A stretch of 64,000 bases of DNA, from assembly GCA_963701025.1 (NCBI GenBank), contig OY969557.1, positions 368,622 to 432,621 of the forward strand. The letters run 5' to 3'. Under the pieces are notes generated by a model, which was not told where the DNA came from, ran no database searches, and saw nothing but the letters and a program-made list of their open reading frames with translations. Positions 17,478-51,525 of the stretch are shown here, one piece after another. The position numbers and the translations under genes were made by a program. The stretch's first letter is position 1. Each line of letters opens with the position of its first letter. The stretch is from an uncultured bacterium (GTDB taxonomy: Bacteria > Patescibacteriota > Minisyncoccia > Phycocordibacterales > PALSA-1337).

Positions 17478-17550
17478 TGCCGAGGACCAGGATCGAACTG
17501 GTGACCCTTCCCTCTTCAGGGGAATGCTCTACCAACTGAGCTACCTCGGC
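17478..17550 (-). tRNA. tRNA-Phe (anticodon GAA)
   Basis: Manual cloverleaf: acceptor GCCGAGG, D arm GCTC/GAGC, anticodon loop CTGAAGA, T arm ACCAG-TTCGATC-CTGGT. The 3' CCA is not encoded (ACCCA follows). Confidence 0.8.
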
Positions 17551-17928: not shown

Positions 17929-18000
17929 GCCCTCGTAGTTCAACGGATAGAACAACTCCGTCCTAAGGAGTGGATGTAGGTTCAATTCCTGCCGAGGGTA
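17929..18000 (+). tRNA. tRNA-Arg (anticodon CCT)
   Basis: Manual fold: acceptor GCCCTCG/CGAGGGT (G1:T72), anticodon stem ACTCC/GGAGT, loop GTCCTAA, T arm GTAGG-TTCAATT-CCTGC. No encoded CCA. Confidence 0.75.
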
Positions 18001-45420: not shown

Positions 45421-47350
45421 TTACCTCCTCCTCCCCCTCCCGGCCCTTAAAGCGTTCCCTATCGGAATAAAGTCGGTCAGGAAATTAAACGCCGCAGCGC
45501 CGGCTGGTCCTAAAACGCCCAGGCCGGGGATGCCGACGGTGACCCAGACGAGGCCGAAGGCGTTGGTCACGGCCCAGATGCCGAAGCATTGCCACATGAT
45601 GGCCCTGACCTGGCGGGCGGTCTTCATGGTCTCCGGCAGGCGGCGCAGGTGGTCGTGCATGATGGTGATGTCGGCCGCTTCGATGGCCGCGTCGGAGCCG
45701 ATGCCGCCCATGGCGATGCCAACGTCGGCCAGAGCCAATGAAGCCGCGTCATTCACCCCGTCGCCGATATAGGCGACGACTTCCGGTTCTTTCTCGCGCT
45801 CGAAACGGTTGACGAAAGCCACTTTCGATTCCGGCGTCATATTGGCATGGAAATGCCTGATGCCGAGCTCGCCGGCCACGGCCGCCGCGGCATGCTCGTT
45901 GTCGCCGGTCAGCATGTGCCATTCCTTGACTCCGTAAACTCCGGTTTCTGCAATGATGTCTTTGGCATGAGGACGCAATTCGTCGCGATATGACAGAAGA
46001 CCGGCCACTTCCCCGCCGATAGCCAGGACAACCACGCCGCGTCCGGCGTCTTTCTCCAGATCGATGTCTTTCTTTATTTGCTCGGGAATGCGCACGCCAT
46101 TGGACTCCATGAATGAAAGACGGCCGAGGAGCATGTGCTCATTGCCGTGGCTGTACGACACGCCCTGACCCGACACTTCCTCCGACTGATGCGGCGCGTG
46201 GATGGCGATATTCTTTGTCCTGATGTAATCGAGAATGGCCCGCGAGACCGCGTGCTTGGACTCCGAAGCGCCCATGCCGGCGCGGTTCAGGACCGTATTC
46301 GCGGAGAAAGCGCCATACGTCTTCACCTCCACTATCTTCGGCTTGCCCCGGGTCAAAGTGCCGGTCTTGTCGGTCAATATGTATTTCGTCCGAGAAAGCT
46401 GTTCAAAAGCGGCCGAGCCTTTGACGATGACGCCGCGCTTGGCGGTGCGGGCGATAGCGGAGGTGAAAGCCAATGGCACGGCCACGGCGATGTCGTCGGC
46501 GCAGACCACGAGAAGGATGGCCAGTATCTCATTCGGAGACAGGCCATAGAGATAGAGGGCGAATGAGCCCGCGAGCGACAGACCTATGTACCACTGGGTG
46601 AAAGTATCAGCCACTCGCTCGGCCCGGCTCTTTGACCGGCTGGCCTCTTCGACCAGAGCCATGATGCGGGCCAGCGTCGAATCCTTGCCGATCTTCTCGG
46701 CCCTGACCACAAGCGAGCCGCTCTCGTTCACCGTGGCGGTGAAGACGCTGCTACCGGCTTTTTTCGGCACGAGCTCGCTCTCGCCGGTCAGCGACGACTC
46801 GTCGACCTCGGCTTCGCCGGAGACGACCGTGCCGTCGACAGGCATGCGATCGCCGGATTCGACCACTATATGGTCGCCGACTTTGACCTGGCTGATGTGT
46901 ATATCTCTGACCGTCTCGCCGTCTTGGATGCGGACGTTCTCGACGTGATATTTCATCAAGCTCTCGATGACCTTCTTGGCCCGAGATCTGGGTGACATGA
47001 TCGAAGACCCGGGCGCAGGCCAGCATGAGGGTGATGAAGGCGGCCGAAGACCACTGATGGGCAAGGAGCGAGAAAGCTAGGGCGACCGACGCTAGAAGGT
47101 CGACCGAGACGCGCCTGTGGGCGATCGACTTCGCGGCGCTTATAAGGACCGGGATGAGGCCGAGGAAAGAAAGGACGGCGAGGATGATGGTCAGGATGGG
47201 CTTCACTCCCGCCGGAAATGGCATGAAAAGAGCGATGAGTGAAAGAGTCGTGAGTGCGATGAGGAAGATGTCGAAGGTGAATAGGAATCTGCCGCTACGG
47301 CCGATCTTGGCGGCGGCTTTGGATTCCTGGCAGGCTGTAGCAGAGAACAT
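45421..47350 (-). pseudogene. Cation-transporting P-type ATPase split by a frameshift near 46950-47000
   Basis: An N-terminal TM ORF (47350-46751) and an ORF 47064-45421 containing DKTGTLT, TGDN and GDGVNDA motifs. The frames are displaced by one nucleotide. Confidence 0.6.
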
Positions 47351-47357
47351 GGGGATA

Positions 47358-48365
47358 TTATAGCAGGTATGCCGATCTTAACTTCTCGATTTGGGCTTTT
47401 AGTTTATGACTATTGCCGTGACTGATCAGACCGAGATAAGACTGTACGGTCTCCGCTTTTCCGCCTTTTTCCTCGATCGTTCTAAACATCTTCCGCTTCG
47501 TTGCAGTTCGTAGCACACGATGATCCGTAAAATTGATCCATCCGAGGTAGTCGACGCCGGAGGCAATGGTGCGTATGGATATTTTCTTGGGATGTAAATG
47601 AAGGTGTAATCTGTCGTTCAAAAAAGATCGTATCTGCGGAATGAGCCCGACAAGCCAGTCCCGATCTGATGAGAAGAGAACGAAATCATCGGCGTAGCGG
47701 ATATAGTATTTTGCTTTAAGTTTGTGCTTCACGAACTGATCGAACTCATTCATGTAGATATTGACTAGGAGCTGTGAAGTGAGGTTGCCGAGAGGTAGAC
47801 CGATGCCGTCGGCAGTCGAGTGAAAGCTGCCAATGATTTCAGAGAGGAGCCAGATAATATCCTTGTCTGGAATATAATCTTTGATGATTTCAACGAGTAC
47901 TCTCTGGTCAATAGATGCGAAGAATTTCTTGATGTCGCATTTAAGCACCCAAGCAGTCTGCGTGTGATTCTGCGTCACTTTGTATGAAAAATCTCGGAAT
48001 CGGTTTACTGCTTCATGTGTCCCCTTTCCGAACCTGCATGAAAATGAATCCGCAATGAATATCTTGTCGAAAAAGATATGGAGTTCACGATAGATTGCGT
48101 GATGAAGTAGCCTGTCTCTCACGCTCGCCTTGTGGATGTTCCTCGGCTTTGGGTCGGATATATTGAACGCTTCGTATGATGAATGCTTGTAAGTCTTTGC
48201 CACAAGGTCATTATGAAGCGAAATTATATTGTCCATCAGATTTCGTTCGAATGTCTGAACGTCTTTTCTGGCCCGTTTTCCTTTCACGAACTCTTTCCAT
48301 GCCTCGATGATATTTTCGAGGGAAATGATATGATTGTAGCCATGTCCAAATTGAATCCGTCGCAT
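47358..48365 (-). CDS. DGR-type reverse transcriptase
   Basis: RT domains 1-7 with YADDFV. The DGR-diagnostic motif 4 is GIGLPLGNLTSQ (SQ instead of the group II SP). The N-terminus (FNISDPKPRNIHKASVRDRLLHHAI...SFSCRFGKGTHEAV) is typical of DGR RTs. No maturase or endonuclease domain. Confidence 0.85.
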   Translation of the reverse strand: MRRIQFGHGYNHIISLENIIEAWKEFVKGKRARKDVQTFERNLMDNIISLHNDLVAKTYKHSSYEAFNISDPKPRNIHKASVRDRLLHHAIYRELHIFFDKIFIADSFSCRFGKGTHEAVNRFRDFSYKVTQNHTQTAWVLKCDIKKFFASIDQRVLVEIIKDYIPDKDIIWLLSEIIGSFHSTADGIGLPLGNLTSQLLVNIYMNEFDQFVKHKLKAKYYIRYADDFVLFSSDRDWLVGLIPQIRSFLNDRLHLHLHPKKISIRTIASGVDYLGWINFTDHRVLRTATKRKMFRTIEEKGGKAETVQSYLGLISHGNSHKLKAQIEKLRSAYLL

Positions 48366-48378
48366 GTCAGAGAAGTCG

Positions 48379-48389
48379 CCCCCCCCCCC
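48379..48389 (+). repeat. C11/G11 homopolymer in the ~40-bp gap between the divergent avd and RT starts
   Basis: Read directly. Confidence 0.9.
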
Positions 48390-48406
48390 ACGGATTTTTA
48401 CCTGTA

Positions 48407-48760
48407 TTGAGTAAGGTGAAAGAAACATATTTGTTGTGGTATGGATATTACCAGATTTTACCCAAGGCACACAGGCATTCCCTTGGACAGAGGATTGACG
48501 GCCTTTTTATCGAAGTCATAGAGGCCATAACTGCCGCCAGTTTCTTGTCTCCCATTGAAAAACATCCGTATGTCCGGTTGGCCATCAAAAAGACCGACAC
48601 GCTCAAGGTCTTGCTCATGGTTCTGTGGGAGACCAAATCGCTTGATGACAAGAAATATATAGCCCTGTCGGTGAAGTTGGACGAGATAGGCAAGAATCTG
48701 GGCGGCTGGAACGGACAACTCACAAGACAAAACTCCCCCGTAAAAACGAGGGAGAAATGA
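48407..48760 (+). CDS. Accessory variability determinant (Avd)-like four-helix-bundle protein, encoded on the strand opposite to the RT, TR and VR
   Basis: 117 aa. LPKAHRHSLGQRIDGLFIEVIEAITAAS and a C-terminal KLDEIGKNLGGW resemble bAvd (…IAEVGRILGSWI) and the TIGR02436 family. TTG/GTG start. Confidence 0.7.
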   Translation: MSKVKETYLLWYGYYQILPKAHRHSLGQRIDGLFIEVIEAITAASFLSPIEKHPYVRLAIKKTDTLKVLLMVLWETKSLDDKKYIALSVKLDEIGKNLGGWNGQLTRQNSPVKTREK

Positions 48761-48766
48761 AGAGAG

Positions 48767-48890
48767 TTGCGGACACCGCAGCCGGATTGTTGGAGTTCCA
48801 GTCGTTGTCGAGCCAGTTGTTGCTCCAAATCCACCTGTCGCCGTTCCAGTTGAGGTAACGGACGTAGAGGTTGCCGTCAGAGTTGCGGTA
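48767..48890 (-). repeat. DGR template repeat (TR)
   Basis: 124 nt, 111/124 identical to the VR. On the minus strand it reads ...YRNSDGNLYVRYLNWNGDRWIWSNNWLDNDWNSNNPAAVSA with many AAC codons. Confidence 0.85.
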
Positions 48891-49171
48891 TCGTACGGGA
48901 CGCCTTCCGTGCCACCACCCCTTGAATGCTCTCAGGGTTGAATCGTATCCGGCATCGAAATGCCCTAGCGCCTCGTACCAAGTATGTTCATTTTTTAATG
49001 AAGTTCTGCATGCACCACTCTACCCAAAACCTTGGTCTTGCCCAAAGGGTCAATGTGCTCATTGAGATACGCTCGATGCATGGATACTGGATTCGGTAGC
49101 GAGAAACCGTGGTCGCCCGCATATTCACCTACTACCGCACTCGATTCTAGCATATTTATATAAATGACAAA

Positions 49172-49193
49172 CCCCAAGCCGAATTGCTTGGGG
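49172..49193 (-). terminator. Perfect 8-bp hairpin (ccccaagc-cgaatt-gcttgggg) between the target gene and the TR
   Basis: Read directly. On the minus strand it is followed by tttgtcattt. Confidence 0.45.
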
Positions 49194-49290
49194 TGAAGTT
49201 ATACGCATATCTTCAAGAGCGTTTGTTTTCTTATCGCAAGGACAAAGGTCAAAGTGACTGAAGCAGTCCACAGTAACCAAGTCCAGAGTG

Positions 49291-49911
49291 CTAACTTGCG
49301 GACACCGCAGCCGGATTGTTGGAGTGCCAGTCGCCGTCGAGCCAGAGGCTGCTCCAAAGACACCTGTCGCCGTGCCAGCTGAGGTAACGGACGTAGAGGT
49401 CGCCGTCAGAGCGGCGGTAAACCGTTCCCCAGAAGAAGATGTAGCGGGTGTTCCCATTGCCATCAACCTTCCAAGAATCCGGAATCAACTGCGGATGCTC
49501 ACGGAGGTAATCCAGAACATTGGCGTTCAGCACCGGTTGCTTCGACACTTCCTTGCGGAGGTCGTTGCCCTCGATGCGTCCACCTTTCTTCTGCGGCTTC
49601 GACAAGTAGAAGTCAATCTTCTTGCCGTCGAGGTAGAGGTCGGCTCCCCGGCGTTCGAGCTTGGCAACCTTGCCCTTCTGGTGTTCTTCCACCTTCCAGC
49701 CGTCAGGCAGAAAGGGGTCGGCACCGAGGTCAATTGCATACTCGACGGGCTTGATTTCATACAAGCCGAGTTTTACGCCCCTCACTTGGCCGAGGAAATC
49801 CCCGACGGTGAGCGCTTTGACTTCTTCCAATGATTGGAAACCGTTGCGGTTGAATGCGTGTTCCAGCTCTTGAGCCAGACCGACACCGAGTGTTAACCTG
49901 TTATTATCCAT
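49291..49911 (-). CDS. DGR target protein with the C-terminal variable region (C-type lectin/FGE-like fold inferred)
   Basis: The C-terminus is ...YIFFWGTVYRRSDGDLYVRYLSWHGDRCLWSSLWLDGDWHSNNPAAVSAS. The VR occupies the last ~41 codons. Start chosen at ATG 49911 (MDNNRL). Confidence 0.75.
   Translation of the reverse strand: MDNNRLTLGVGLAQELEHAFNRNGFQSLEEVKALTVGDFLGQVRGVKLGLYEIKPVEYAIDLGADPFLPDGWKVEEHQKGKVAKLERRGADLYLDGKKIDFYLSKPQKKGGRIEGNDLRKEVSKQPVLNANVLDYLREHPQLIPDSWKVDGNGNTRYIFFWGTVYRRSDGDLYVRYLSWHGDRCLWSSLWLDGDWHSNNPAAVSAS
49296..49419 (-). repeat. DGR variable repeat (VR) at the 3' end of the target gene
   Basis: 13 mismatches to the TR, 12 of them at TR adenines (coding strand): TR AAC codons become CGC, GAC, AGC, CAC, GGC and CTC. 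The 3' GC-rich segment with the tgcgg-aca-ccgca hairpin is shared (IMH-like). Confidence 0.85.
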
Positions 49912-50098
49912 AACGTGTTCTTTCTCTGTTTCGTGGACATGTCCTTTTCGAGGACTGGTCCAAGCTGTTGGGCTCAAGCTTCGTGCTTTTGCCACAGCAG
50001 AGAATGGCCTATAAATAAGCCGCTTTCTGCCGTGGCAAACGCAAGTTAGGCTATCAAGGAGCTTTACTCTGCCATTATACTACCAATTAGTACCAATG

Positions 50099-50650
50099 TC
50101 AATAGCGTGCAAATATGGCCCTAAATAGGGTCATAATCAAACTGAACAGCCACGCTACACCGACCGTCAATTCCAAATTCCCTTCCCTCTTTTCCGCTTC
50201 ACGGAGCGAACGGGCGGCAAGGACAAAGCCGGATGTCGAGGATGCCTGCCACGGCACGATGATCGCGGCGAAGCGCAGGCCGGAAGCGGTCTGCCAGGTG
50301 ACGCGATCTTCGCCGTGAGCTCTGACATAATCAAAAACACCGACCGGAGGCATAGGCAACTCGTTCCCTGCTCTCATCGATGATTCGAGCACAGTACCCC
50401 TGTCATCGAAGACCATGACGAACGGCGCCAAGCTTTTTGAAGCATCGATAACATGCCTGTCCGCCGGCATGAGAGATGCCGGCGCGGCGCCTACCGAAAG
50501 AGCGCGGGCCGCGTCTTCGGCGAGCTGTATTTGCGGATCATTGGCGGACTGTCGCAGGTCCTGTTGGACGGCGGCGTATATCGTGACAAAAATGACCGTT
50601 ATGACGGCCCCTGCGAGCAGAAATCTGACAAGCGGGATGAACCTTTGCAT
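50099..50650 (-). CDS. Membrane-anchored hypothetical protein
   Basis: The internal start MQRFIPLV avoids overlap; one TM near each end. Confidence 0.45.
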   Translation of the reverse strand: MQRFIPLVRFLLAGAVITVIFVTIYAAVQQDLRQSANDPQIQLAEDAARALSVGAAPASLMPADRHVIDASKSLAPFVMVFDDRGTVLESSMRAGNELPMPPVGVFDYVRAHGEDRVTWQTASGLRFAAIIVPWQASSTSGFVLAARSLREAEKREGNLELTVGVAWLFSLIMTLFRAIFARY

Positions 50651-50724
50651 GCCGTAATTATATGCTATGATGGCCCGGAACGCACTCTGAAAAGTGCGAG
50701 GATTAACCCAAAGGAGGACCTCAA

Positions 50725-51525
50725 ATGCATGGACGAATATGGATGTTCTGTATTTTTGTTGTTTTATTTTGCGAACCGGCACGGACGCAGACGATAACCC
50801 TGAATAGCACGAATGAGGCTGTCGGATGGGCCGCGTATCCCCGGGAATTGGAGATTCGAGCTACGACTGCGTATCTCGACCGGTTCGGGTATCAGACAGC
50901 GATCGGCTGGACGCGGCTGGCTGAGATCGATAGATATGAGATACACGCTCATGTCGCTTCGGCGGGAAAAGACGTCATGCGCCGCTCCGTCATCTACAGT
51001 TTACGCGAGACCGCGGCGAACATGCCCATCGCTCTAGGGTGGCACGATTGGGCAGAAAATCTGTTCGCCGGAACAGTCGGCAATACGATCGAAGGAGACG
51101 TCAATACGCTCTCTCCCTTACCATCTTCCGCCGAAGCTTCATATTGGAAACAGATGAAGTCGGATGGGAGCCTGTCATACGGCCTCCGACCGTTCGAGGG
51201 CAATCCGTACGGTTATATCGGCACGCAATGGGGACACTGGAGAGGCAATCCTGCCGCCGTGACCCTGGTACGTTGGCATTACGACCCGATCCGGATAGCG
51301 TCGACGATCGACGGACAGATATCATTCCCCTTGCCGTACGGATCGCAGTTGAGCATCGGCACGTCATTCCGACCGGAACGCATTGGATCGAGCGATCTCA
51401 ATCCCGGCGTATCGATACGATGGGTATGGTCGTTCAAGACGGTGGCTATGGATGGCAATTGCTTCGTCGGTACGATCATAGACGGGGACTCGAGGATCGA
51501 CTGCGGATTCATCATTCACTTCTGA
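50725..51525 (+). CDS. Secreted hypothetical protein (signal peptide)
   Basis: 266-aa ORF with a hydrophobic N-terminus. Confidence 0.5.
   Translation: MHGRIWMFCIFVVLFCEPARTQTITLNSTNEAVGWAAYPRELEIRATTAYLDRFGYQTAIGWTRLAEIDRYEIHAHVASAGKDVMRRSVIYSLRETAANMPIALGWHDWAENLFAGTVGNTIEGDVNTLSPLPSSAEASYWKQMKSDGSLSYGLRPFEGNPYGYIGTQWGHWRGNPAAVTLVRWHYDPIRIASTIDGQISFPLPYGSQLSIGTSFRPERIGSSDLNPGVSIRWVWSFKTVAMDGNCFVGTIIDGDSRIDCGFIIHF

Follow-up and report, generated by a model that had tools for sequence, protein, structure and literature searches.

A chromosomal diversity-generating retroelement of the candidate phyla radiation, with a conserved structured RNA upstream of its template repeat

The 64-kb stretch of DNA analysed here (the window) contains a real, apparently intact diversity-generating retroelement (DGR), of a kind already known from candidate-phyla-radiation (CPR) bacteria. 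The best explanation, to which a probability of about 0.9 can be given, is a chromosomal DGR of Patescibacteria (CPR, Paceibacteria-like) with the B3 layout, operating through the RNA and homing steps proposed below. The original prediction that the region is a DGR is supported by a reverse transcriptase (RT) of the DGR type, an adjoining pair of template and variable repeats (TR and VR), their adenine-specific divergence, the position of the VR as the 3′-terminal part of an open reading frame, and the presence of an Avd gene.

Layout of the cassette and its protein genes

The genes and the elements lying next to them are the following:
47358-48368, minus strand: DGR reverse transcriptase, 336 aa and stop, Pfam RVT_1 (start given as GTG 48470 by the ORF lister)
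48379-48389, minus strand: G11 homopolymer within the 38 nt that separate the divergent avd and RT genes
48407-48760, plus strand: avd (accessory variability determinant), 117 aa, on the strand opposite to the other DGR parts
49161-49194, minus strand: predicted terminator-like hairpin and T tract closing the target transcript; relatives have a GC hairpin at the same place
49291-49911, minus strand: target (variable protein) gene, 206 aa and stop, taken from the ORF list
50074-50102, minus strand: putative promoter ahead of the target gene, a 12/12 match to the consensus (TTGACA-17-TATAAT)

The cassette runs in the order target-VR / TR / (avd, inverted) / RT, with a single target upstream. The term 'architecture B3' denotes the succession of TR, reverse-strand avd and RT without further accessory gene, and 90% of CPR DGRs have it (Wu et al. 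2018, PMC5758913). This is the order found in the window, where TR (48890-48767, minus strand), avd (48407-48760, plus strand) and RT (48368-47358, minus strand) follow each other and other accessory genes are absent. As this layout is already on record for CPR DGRs, the window element belongs to a known DGR kind. Compared with the CPR B3 DGRs (Wu et al. 2018, PMC5758913) and with clade 2 (Roux et al. 2021, PMC8144416), nothing essential differs: the host group, the chromosomal location, the inverted avd between TR and RT, the sole target lying upstream with its VR at the C-terminus, and the lack in the target of signal peptide, TM segment or recognisable domain are all shared, so that the window element is a member of that group. 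Its flanks hold ordinary cellular genes (P-type ATPase, NDH-2, DUF2127, DoxX). The layout and the adenine bias are common to 33 species-level relatives, and the cassette with A-biased repeats was found again in more than 130 loci. A scan of viral_contigs with an 18-nt word of the leader described below gave 10 matches, all of them chance matches with neither leader nor DGR, so this probe gave no sign of a phage-borne version.

RTs of the DGR group are marked by the motifs (I/L)GxxxSQ and YxDD. The RT ORF contains both the LPLGNLTSQ motif, which had been taken as DGR-specific, and YADD; in the alignment with the Bordetella phage RT (bRT) they correspond to IPIGSLTSQ and YMDD, respectively. Among solved structures bRT (8ub7) was the best relative (E = 1.7e-37), far ahead of group II intron and retron RTs (E about 1e-15), which bears out the predicted affinity as judged by E-values of solved relatives. 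The alignment also shows conserved counterparts of bRT K29, F66, R74, I76, G182 and Q187 and of its catalytic Asp residues.

The predicted Avd-like gene is present, and it is inverted relative to all the other DGR parts, a detail missing from the earlier reading. Its product matches NF033474 DivGenRetAVD (E = 1.3e-13) and PF22296 bAvd (E = 3.7e-9), in both cases below the curated cut-offs. Both families were matched by 26/26 sequences (the window and 25 orthologues; best E 3.8e-20), and the position and orientation of avd are alike in every related cassette. The four-helix fold that had been proposed for it received no confirmation: neither the Avd sequence nor an Avd profile matched anything in the PDB, and the single-sequence AF2 model (pLDDT 48) left the fold unconfirmed. 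Avd occurs in most DGRs, though not in all. The G11 tract next to avd is the sole G/C run of at least 8 in the window. A G run of at least 5 stands at the avd-RT site in 80/92 related cassettes (lengths 6-14), and (GT)8 or (CT)6 replaces it in two further ones. The comparison of poly-G length between near-identical contigs provided one informative pair only. The conservation of the tract suggests that hypermutation itself may be switchable.

The target gene starts at ATG 49911, as the N-termini of homologues align at MDNN; a longer candidate starting at GTG 49995 (234 aa) was rejected, the homologues giving no support to it. As predicted, the VR is the 3′ end of this ORF, occupying codons 165-206 of the 206. 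The homologues (n = 742) are all unnamed and mostly from Patescibacteria. The sequence had no match in Pfam, NCBIfam or PDB, no hydrophobic N-terminal segment was seen by eye, and the AF2 model (pLDDT 92.6) gave nothing significant in Foldseek searches of PDB and BFVD. Targets without recognisable domains are also the rule reported for the CPR 'clade 2' of cellular DGRs (Roux et al. 2021, PMC8144416).

Template and variable repeats

The repeats and the elements at the VR end are the following:
48767-48890, minus strand: TR, from the repeat finder and an ungapped comparison; 32 adenines, nine AAC codons in the target frame
49296-49419, minus strand: VR, target codons 165-206; 13 differences from the TR, 12 of them at TR adenines
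49296-49325, minus strand: IMH-like block of 30 nt closing the VR, same as the TR end 48767-48796
49240-49284, minus strand: segmented hairpin just 3′ of the VR, three short helices with T-rich internal loops between them; absent after the TR

The repeat finder returned the same pair that had been predicted (124 nt, 90% identity, spacing 529). In the ungapped comparison of the minus strand, TR and VR were identical at 111/124 positions, and the re-check of the alignment upheld the adenine specificity: the 12 mismatches at TR adenines were A>G (six), A>C (five) and A>T (one), while the only other one, a G>T, stands immediately beside an A>C change. Given 32 A in the 124-nt TR, the hypergeometric probability of at least 12/13 mismatches at A is 1.5e-7. 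In the target frame, the changes affect positions 1-2 of eight AAC codons (N to R, D, S, H, S, L, G and H) and one ATT codon (I to L), the odd codon change being TGG to TGT (W to C). No mismatch lies beyond alignment position 93, the final 30 nt are the same in both repeats, and the similarity stops at the same base in both, one codon ahead of the target stop codon. No third copy of the repeat was found in the 64-kb window. Across relatives, 575/645 TR/VR mismatches were at A, a count that covers the 37 loci with a VR repeat found, 33 of which, the window included, have the standard layout.

By analogy with BPP-1, the IMH-like block may act as the 3′ homing boundary. Since the last 30 nt are alike in TR and VR, the discrimination between donor and recipient must lie in the flanks, and these differ: GTTAG... 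and the segmented hairpin follow the VR, while CTCTCTTCATTT and another hairpin follow the TR. In some other DGRs, too, IMH and IMH* are identical (Wu et al. 2018, PMC5758913). The original prediction had placed the IMH element in a tgcgg/ccgca hairpin. This assignment did not stand, because the hairpin (tgcgg-tgt-ccgca) lies inside the coding block shared by TR and VR and recurs in only 3/33 loci, window included; it was rejected as a conserved element, and thus it is no counterpart of the VR-specific structure of BPP-1. The segmented hairpin 3′ of the VR fits better in that role. In the window it folds with -19.0 kcal/mol (z = -2.4); z was below -2 in 20/33 loci, the window included, with a mean of -2.1 versus -0.57 for coding controls, and its shape is constant between loci with differing sequences. 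An inverted repeat or hairpin downstream of the VR occurs in about a third of DGRs.

Leader RNA, linker and terminal hairpin

On both sides of the TR, the following RNA elements were delineated:
49144-49152, minus strand: extended -10 promoter-like element for the DGR RNA, TG-c-TAGAAT, read from the sequence; putative start of transcription
48891-49137, minus strand: structured leader RNA of ~245 nt, directly abutting the TR (comparative fold)
49136-49089, minus strand: leader helix P1 (consensus fold)
49082-49009, minus strand: leader helix P2 (consensus fold)
48999-48979, minus strand: A-rich single strand of the leader (consensus fold)
48985-48993, minus strand: primer-like leader strand, AAATGAACA (consensus AAAUGAAGA), with complementarity to the linker that follows the TR; its priming role is hypothetical
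48978-48893, minus strand: P3 three-way domain of the leader, with hairpins 48964-48951 and 48938-48917
48755-48766, minus strand: linker CTCTCTTCATTT that follows the TR, conserved; its bases 48763-48755 are the complement of the leader strand
48724-48754, minus strand: hairpin (48754-48733) and U tract (48732-48724), intrinsic-terminator-like, overlapping the antisense of the avd C-terminal tail

The TG-n-TAnAAT sequence at the position of the putative DGR-RNA promoter is conserved in relatives. In the leader itself, RNAalifold gave 56 pairs, 43 of them with compensatory changes. Of the cells of the consensus, 97.1% were paired versus 83.7% after shuffling, with 0/500 shuffles as high, and slid-register controls were paired at 37-46%. 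Independent leaders from metagenomes (n = 88) kept the fold, with 96.3% paired. For the window leader, the single-sequence MFE (z = -1.86) differs from the consensus fold and fails to reproduce it, so the comparative evidence was relied on. A small ORF in the same gap (48995-49177, 60 aa) was rejected, because leader indels are not multiples of three (9/137 runs) and no frame is open across relatives.

The leader is present in more than 130 loci and goes with at least five target families besides that of the window. In 106 metagenome loci it is joined to TR-(avd)-RT, and the targets upstream of it, whose VRs are A-biased, belong to at least five further families. The homology between TR and VR sets in at a median of 3 nt past P3, and at 0-5 nt in 98/114 loci.

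The pairing of the leader strand with the linker was assessed in the same way. The two strands are 90-92% paired, with compensatory changes in 5/9 pairs and register controls at 46-66%, and their complementarity is kept in 103 loci across different target families. The covariation is modest (91.7% paired versus 89.8% with shuffled partners), because the sequence of the helix is highly conserved. In the window, 8/9 positions pair, with one C-C mismatch. All 33 loci, the window included, have the terminal hairpin with a conserved U tract behind it; the hairpin is 92% paired, with compensatory changes in 4/7 pairs. It is predicted to be an intrinsic-terminator-like end of the DGR RNA, and it is possible that it also serves as an Avd-binding stem-loop. 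Leader, linker and terminal hairpin of the window all agree with the consensus.

Searching Rfam at gathering thresholds gave only two tRNAs, both away from the DGR region, and at E <= 10 over 48650-49350 there was no family match but two chance matches only. Neither the 245-nt leader RNA nor the avd-RT poly-G tract was found in Rfam or in the accessible DGR papers, and in those papers no mention was found of the leader/linker complementarity either.

Working model, rival readings and meaning

The observations can be arranged in the following proposal. A separate RNA of ~415 nt would start at its own promoter (~49152) and end at the hairpin and U tract (~48724), comprising the 245-nt structured leader, the 124-nt TR, the 12-nt linker and the hairpin. 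It would be bound by the RT-Avd complex, which would reverse-transcribe the TR and put random bases opposite adenines. The cDNA would then replace the VR, and with it the final 42 codons of the 206-aa target, in which no signal peptide is recognisable; nine AAC codons and one ATT, ten positions at most, could be recoded in this way. Homing would be aimed at the VR and away from the TR by the 30-nt 3′ block, which is invariant, together with the segmented hairpin found only at the VR. As a working hypothesis, the leader strand 48993-48985, paired to the linker just 3′ of the TR, could be a cis-primer like Sp A56 in BPP-1, and helix P3, whose end is 3 nt ahead of the TR, could halt cDNA synthesis.

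The BPP-1 DGR has the order mtd-avd-TR-brt, and the structure of its bRT-Avd:RNA complex is known (PDB 8ub7; Handa et al. 2018 and 2024). The window element shares with it the RT homology including the residues in contact with template and dNTP, Avd, the adenine-specific TR>VR changes in AAC codons, the invariant 3′ block, the VR-only downstream structure, the stem-loop right after the TR and a helix at the TR 5′ edge. However, the window element is cellular and BPP-1 is phage-borne; avd is inverted and downstream of the TR in the window; where BPP-1 has a 140-nt 3′ spacer, the window has its large structured RNA on the 5′ side of the TR; the stop-like helix is made of two leader strands rather than of upstream and downstream sequence; the VR flank carries a long segmented hairpin rather than an 8-bp GC stem; and the target, a tail-fibre tip in BPP-1, is in the window a small protein in which no signal peptide can be recognised. 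The spacer RNA of BPP-1 is RT-10, one of the Rfam motifs RT-1 to RT-19 (Weinberg et al. 2017, PMC5737381). These are likewise structured RNAs beside bacterial RT genes, and RT-10 is part of a DGR RNA, but the window leader matches none of the families and is on the other side of the TR. If the priming hypothesis holds, there would also be a likeness to retrons (msr/msd), where an internal 2′-OH of a structured RNA 5′ of the template primes and a branched RNA-cDNA results; unlike retrons, the window has an RT of the DGR group, a TR/VR pair with adenine mutagenesis and no match to a retron RNA family.

The complementarity of a leader segment to the linker just 3′ of the TR suggests a permuted, 5′-primed DGR RNA. 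In its full form this idea, which is offered tentatively, is that the DGR RNA is a circular permutation of that of BPP-1, in which the 5′ leader gives both the cis-priming strand and the cDNA-stop helix and the RNA ends in an Avd-type hairpin and terminator, the whole being a modular cassette for at least six target families (that of the window counted) and the poly-G perhaps switching the system. Somewhat unlikely, but to be weighed against it, is an RNA like that of BPP-1, with priming and RT-binding elements 3′ of the TR in the avd antisense, the hairpin and U tract being only an Avd-binding stem-loop and the leader having a non-priming function in stability, regulation or RNP assembly. In BPP-1, indeed, the 3′ side of the TR holds the primer (Sp A56), the partner of the stop duplex, the thumb ring and the bRT-binding stem-loop, and an Avd-binding stem-loop comes directly after the TR (Handa et al. 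2024); besides, covariation support for the leader/linker helix is modest and termination at 48724 is a prediction. Against such an RNA speak the conservation of the U tract in all 33 loci, the presence past the terminal hairpin of sequence that codes for Avd on the opposite strand, the leader-linker complementarity in the 103 loci across target families (register controls 48-58%), and the occurrence of the parts of the permuted RNA in the expected order: primer-like strand, 6 nt, 12-bp helix, 3 nt, TR.

Two other readings concern the nature and the state of the element. That a group II intron or retron-type RT should stand by chance beside a duplicated gene fragment could be defended on the ground that the top NCBIfam match of the RT is a group II intron RT/maturase model and that a DGR-RT model is absent from its NCBIfam matches; yet that match scores 138 bits for a cut-off of 300, bRT is by a wide margin the best solved relative, the adenine bias (P = 1.5e-7) and the Avd gene are to be explained, the DGR region has no Rfam match to intron or retron RNA families, and the cassette with A-biased repeats recurs in more than 130 loci. 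So, this reading, whose chance is negligible, can be considered effectively refuted by the RT match, the adenine bias in the window and that across relatives. It is improbable, though to a much lesser degree, that the window DGR is an inactive relic, with TR/VR differences that are fossils of past homing and a cassette heading for loss. In this lineage DGR loss is common: in 39/80 related loci the target is kept but avd and RT are missing within at least 2.5 kb downstream, and about 10 of these 39 retain partial leader remnants. The target protein of the window copy forms a cluster of one, and the VR is identical in a second assembly (run ERR11718638). On the other side, both the RT ORF and avd are full-length, the RT keeps its catalytic and template-contact residues, leader, linker and hairpin conform to the consensus, and the TR keeps its AAC codons, with 12/13 differences at A and no drift elsewhere in the 124 nt. 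As to the family, in 8 clusters of related targets at least 90% identical, 162/343 columns vary in the last ~43 aa versus 82/1215 elsewhere (odds ratio 12.4, P = 4e-62). Among natural, near-identical versions of related targets the differences are almost confined to the VR, so the family is active; the window copy is presumed to be active at present.

The DGR itself is one more among thousands of CPR DGRs, and it is of value for what the comparison brought to light. Among cellular DGRs those of the CPR are the commonest, and with avd inverted they have no space for the 3′ spacer RNA by which the cDNA is primed in BPP-1, the only DGR studied mechanistically. A conserved, covarying 5′ leader, independent of the target family and provided with a primer-like strand and a helix at the TR boundary, offers a concrete and testable model of how cDNA synthesis may start and stop. 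The target family, with 742 or more members and no recognisable signal peptide or known domain, often outlasts the loss of the DGR, while leader-TR-(avd)-RT forms a compact cassette that could be reconstituted.

The repeat pair, the genes and their relatives

The genes and repeats of the element are located as follows:

49911 (ATG), minus strand: start of the target gene (variable protein, 206 aa), where its homologues also start
49296-49419, minus strand: variable repeat (VR), at the 3′ end of the target gene
48767-48890, minus strand: template repeat (TR)
48407-48760, plus strand: accessory variability determinant (avd), matching NF033474 (E = 1.3e-13) and PF22296 (E = 3.7e-9), both under the curated cut-offs
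48368 (ATG) to 47358 (ORF end), minus strand: reverse transcriptase (RT, 336 aa, Pfam RVT_1), with the start taken from the alignment of relatives

TR and VR (124 nt, spacing 529, 90% identity) were the sole long direct repeat that the repeat finder reported within 46000-51500, and two repeat-derived probes found no third copy in the window. In an ungapped comparison of the minus strands there were 13 mismatches, 12 of them at TR adenines (six A>G, five A>C and one A>T), the other being a G>T that adjoins an A>C change. Given the 32 A among the 124 nt of TR, chance would place 12 or more of the 13 mismatches on A with a probability of 1.5e-7. Read in the target frame, the changes lie in positions 1-2 of eight AAC codons and one ATT, while a ninth AAC and one AAT of TR are left unchanged in VR. 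The final 30 nt of the two repeats show no differences, and their homology ends at the identical base, one codon ahead of the target stop codon. The repeat pair of the original prediction and its adenine bias affecting AAC codons were thus borne out when the alignment was re-checked, and its interpretation as a diversity-generating retroelement (DGR) is supported, with corrections to the orientation of avd, to a hairpin and to how firmly a lectin fold was claimed.

The best solved relative of the RT was the Bordetella phage (BPP-1) DGR enzyme bRT (8ub7, E = 1.7e-37), against E about 1e-15 for group II intron and retron-type RTs, in agreement with the DGR type proposed for it. The numbering of bRT can be transferred because the first alignment block is ungapped. 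Residues K29, F66, R74 and I76, seen by cryo-EM of bRT to touch template and incoming dNTP (Handa et al.), are kept in the window RT. The same holds for the catalytic aspartates and, within the IGxxxSQ motif, for G182 and Q187; the counterpart of I181 is Leu. The presence of an Avd-like gene was also confirmed, since NF033474 and PF22296 were both matched by 26/26 Avd sequences scanned (the window and 25 orthologues). Its inverted orientation had gone unnoticed: avd is on the plus strand, opposing target, TR and RT.

Concerning the target, no match was obtained in Pfam, NCBIfam or PDB sequence searches, and no hydrophobic N-terminal segment was seen by eye. None of its 742 detectable homologues is named, and where a source organism is named it is nearly always one of the Patescibacteria. 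A confident AlphaFold2 model (pLDDT 92.6, 40-sequence alignment) predicts a unit of three helices at the N-terminus, a small beta domain and a C-terminal part in which two helices precede the four-stranded sheet bearing VR. The C-type-lectin scaffold suggested earlier is plausible, in a divergent and minimal form, without being established. In the cluster of P0073, two naturally occurring variants of a related target (P0165 and P0166) contain a 12-residue duplication within VR, which is therefore changeable in length as well as in sequence. Two or three tandem target paralogues occur at L031, L035 and L078, beside one DGR, but at L078 without any DGR.

One genome per species was scanned with the target alignment, which gave relatives in 224 species, and 80 loci were kept (L001-L080). 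A common layout of target, 320-440 nt gap, TR of ~123 nt, 6-62 nt, reverse avd and RT was found in 33 loci, the window counted. Summed over the 37 loci with a detected VR repeat, 575/645 TR/VR mismatches were at TR adenines. The arrangement TR-(avd)-RT was named architecture B3 by Wu et al. 2018 (PMC5758913), and Roux et al. 2021 (PMC8144416) described a cell-encoded, Patescibacteria-restricted DGR clade whose targets are typically without transmembrane or other recognisable domains. These traits, together with ordinary cellular neighbours (P-type ATPase, NDH-2, DUF2127, DoxX), make the window DGR a typical member of the already known B3 / clade 2 DGRs of candidate-phyla-radiation bacteria. 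The reading frame of the P-type ATPase 3′ of RT (45421-47350, minus strand) shifts near 47050, leaving two ORFs that overlap (46751-47350 and 45421-47064); this reflects either a pseudogene or an assembly error.

A conserved leader RNA adjoining TR

The ~245 nt that follow an extended -10 element and reach the first TR base (48891-49137) are highly conserved. The features of this region and of the 3′ side of TR, all on the minus strand, are:

49194-49171: predicted terminator-like hairpin of the target
49152-49144: extended -10 element TG-c-TAGAAT, 3′ of the terminator-like hairpin
49136-49089: leader part P1
49082-49009: leader part P2
48999-48979: conserved A-rich single strand of the leader
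48978-48893: leader part P3, a 12-bp helix closing two hairpins
48766-48755: conserved linker CTCTCTTCATTT 3′ of TR, present in 33/33 loci
48754-48724: hairpin with U tract 3′ of the linker, in 33/33 loci, with compensatory changes in 4/7 pairs

RNAalifold, run on 33 leader sequences, gave 56 base pairs, of which 43 show compensatory double changes. Pairing was found in 97.1% of cells versus 83.7% in column shuffles (0/500 shuffles equalled the observed value) and 37-46% with partners slid 1-3 columns. In 88 distinct metagenome leaders outside the derivation of the structure, 96.3% were paired (slid controls, 37-47%). The leader is non-coding, as just 9/137 indel runs were multiples of three, and it matched no Rfam family even at E <= 10; at gathering threshold, Rfam matched nothing in the 64-kb window but two tRNA genes, 17478-17550 (minus strand) and 17929-18000 (plus strand).

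When metagenomes were scanned with a leader pattern in two parts, at least 120 loci (L091-L210) matched, with the leader confirmed by nhmmer in at least 106. Among the matches listed, it was followed by TR, reverse avd and RT wherever the downstream sequence was long enough. The upstream gene had no detectable relation to the window target in at least 52 loci, and in 42/52 of these, among the matches listed, an A-biased VR was present in proteins whose C-terminal sequences form five or more further families. The leader is conserved in more than 130 loci overall (window, L001-L080 and L091-L210), and the leader-TR-(avd)-RT cassette is modular across target families. TR/VR homology starts at a median of 3 nt past the 3′ strand of P3, and within 0-5 nt in 98/114 loci, so P3 marks the 5′ limit of copying, whatever the target. 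We consider the leader a functional part of the DGR RNA with a probability of about 0.9. No such leader is mentioned in the DGR literature compared, which inspected no more than 40 nt on the upstream and 100 nt on the downstream side of TRs and does not include Paul et al. 2017.

Possible priming and the flank of VR

The BPP-1 RNA begins with an upstream avd segment, TR and the Avd-binding stem-loop; its primer strand is Sp53-56, A56 priming via its 2′-OH, and 3′ of it come the stop-duplex strand contributed by Sp, the thumb ring and finally the stem-loop that binds bRT (Handa et al.). Judging from its sequence, the window DGR RNA seems to end at the hairpin with U tract, and antisense avd lies beyond, which makes a 3′ spacer improbable. 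Linker positions +4 to +12 after TR (48763-48755) are complementary to the leader segment AAAUGAAGA (window 48993-48985, AAATGAACA). This pairing was found in 90% of cells in 33 sequences (slid controls, 46-66%), with compensatory changes in 5/9 pairs, and in 91.7% in 103 loci, where other registers gave 48-58% and shuffled partners 89.8 +/- 0.3% (maximum 90.6%). The covariation is modest because both strands are highly conserved; the window helix has one C-C mismatch. The pairing would put the leader strand on the template exactly at the expected primer site. The strand is 6 nt ahead of P3, which ends 3 nt ahead of TR, and the order would be primer strand, stop helix, TR, template strand and Avd-type hairpin, i.e., a circularly permuted BPP-1 RNA. 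Priming from the leader may be tentatively proposed, at somewhat below even odds.

The RNA hairpin with U tract (48724-48760) is antisense to the codons for the Avd C-terminal tail (consensus ...KQNSPxK), so the sequence of this tail is probably constrained by the RNA element rather than by protein function.

The tgcgg-tgt-ccgca hairpin, previously taken for an initiation-of-mutagenic-homing element, sits inside the shared TR/VR coding block and was found in 3/33 loci, the window counted, which rules it out as a conserved signal. Immediately 3′ of VR, and absent 3′ of TR, every locus has a T-rich region that folds as a long hairpin of three short helices split by T-rich internal loops, its shape being maintained despite differing sequences (mean z -2.1, z < -2 in 20/33; coding controls, -0.57 and 3/33). 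In the window it spans 49284-49240 (minus strand, z = -2.4), and the many CTTTG/CTTGG motifs of this flank are its helix ends and internal loops. By analogy, it likely corresponds to the inverted repeat that BPP-1 has at VR and not at TR, and it may act either as DNA (a cruciform) or as RNA.

Activity, loss and the poly-G tract

Eight clusters of targets sharing at least 90% identity had 162/343 variable columns in the last ~43 residues versus 82/1215 outside these residues (odds ratio 12.4, P = 4e-62), and several clusters had zero variation beyond VR. The DGR family is active, as shown for relatives of the window target and not for the window copy, whose target forms a single-member cluster and whose VR is identical in an independent short-read assembly. 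In 39/80 kept loci, about half of the related species, the target is present, but neither avd nor RT follows it for at least 2.5 kb (among them L002, L004, L009 and L011-L016). Partial leader remnants were seen just 3′ of the target at L004, L011, L013, L018, L029, L033, L036, L056, L069 and L074, and L023 keeps leader and TR without avd or RT. DGR loss with target retention is therefore frequent, which indicates that the DGR was deleted repeatedly while the target was kept.

A G11 run (48379-48389), the sole G/C run of at least 8 in the window, is in the 38-nt region between the divergent avd and RT. Runs of at least five G (lengths 6-14) occupy this site in 80/92 related cassettes, and (GT)8 or (CT)6 replaces them in two others; across 801 kb of related loci there are only 30 G/C runs of at least 8. 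The tract differs in one contig pair with identical flanks. From these sequence patterns, it may be a simple-sequence contingency element, that is, a phase-variation switch, though it could instead be an over-long ribosome-binding site. A literature search gave no paper that connects DGRs with phase variation or with homopolymeric tracts. L031 has two poly-G tracts within a longer avd-RT spacer.

We could not find the leader RNA, the primer-like pairing or the poly-G tract described in the DGR literature compared. Through these three features, the way in which the most common type of cellular DGR works becomes open to direct testing.
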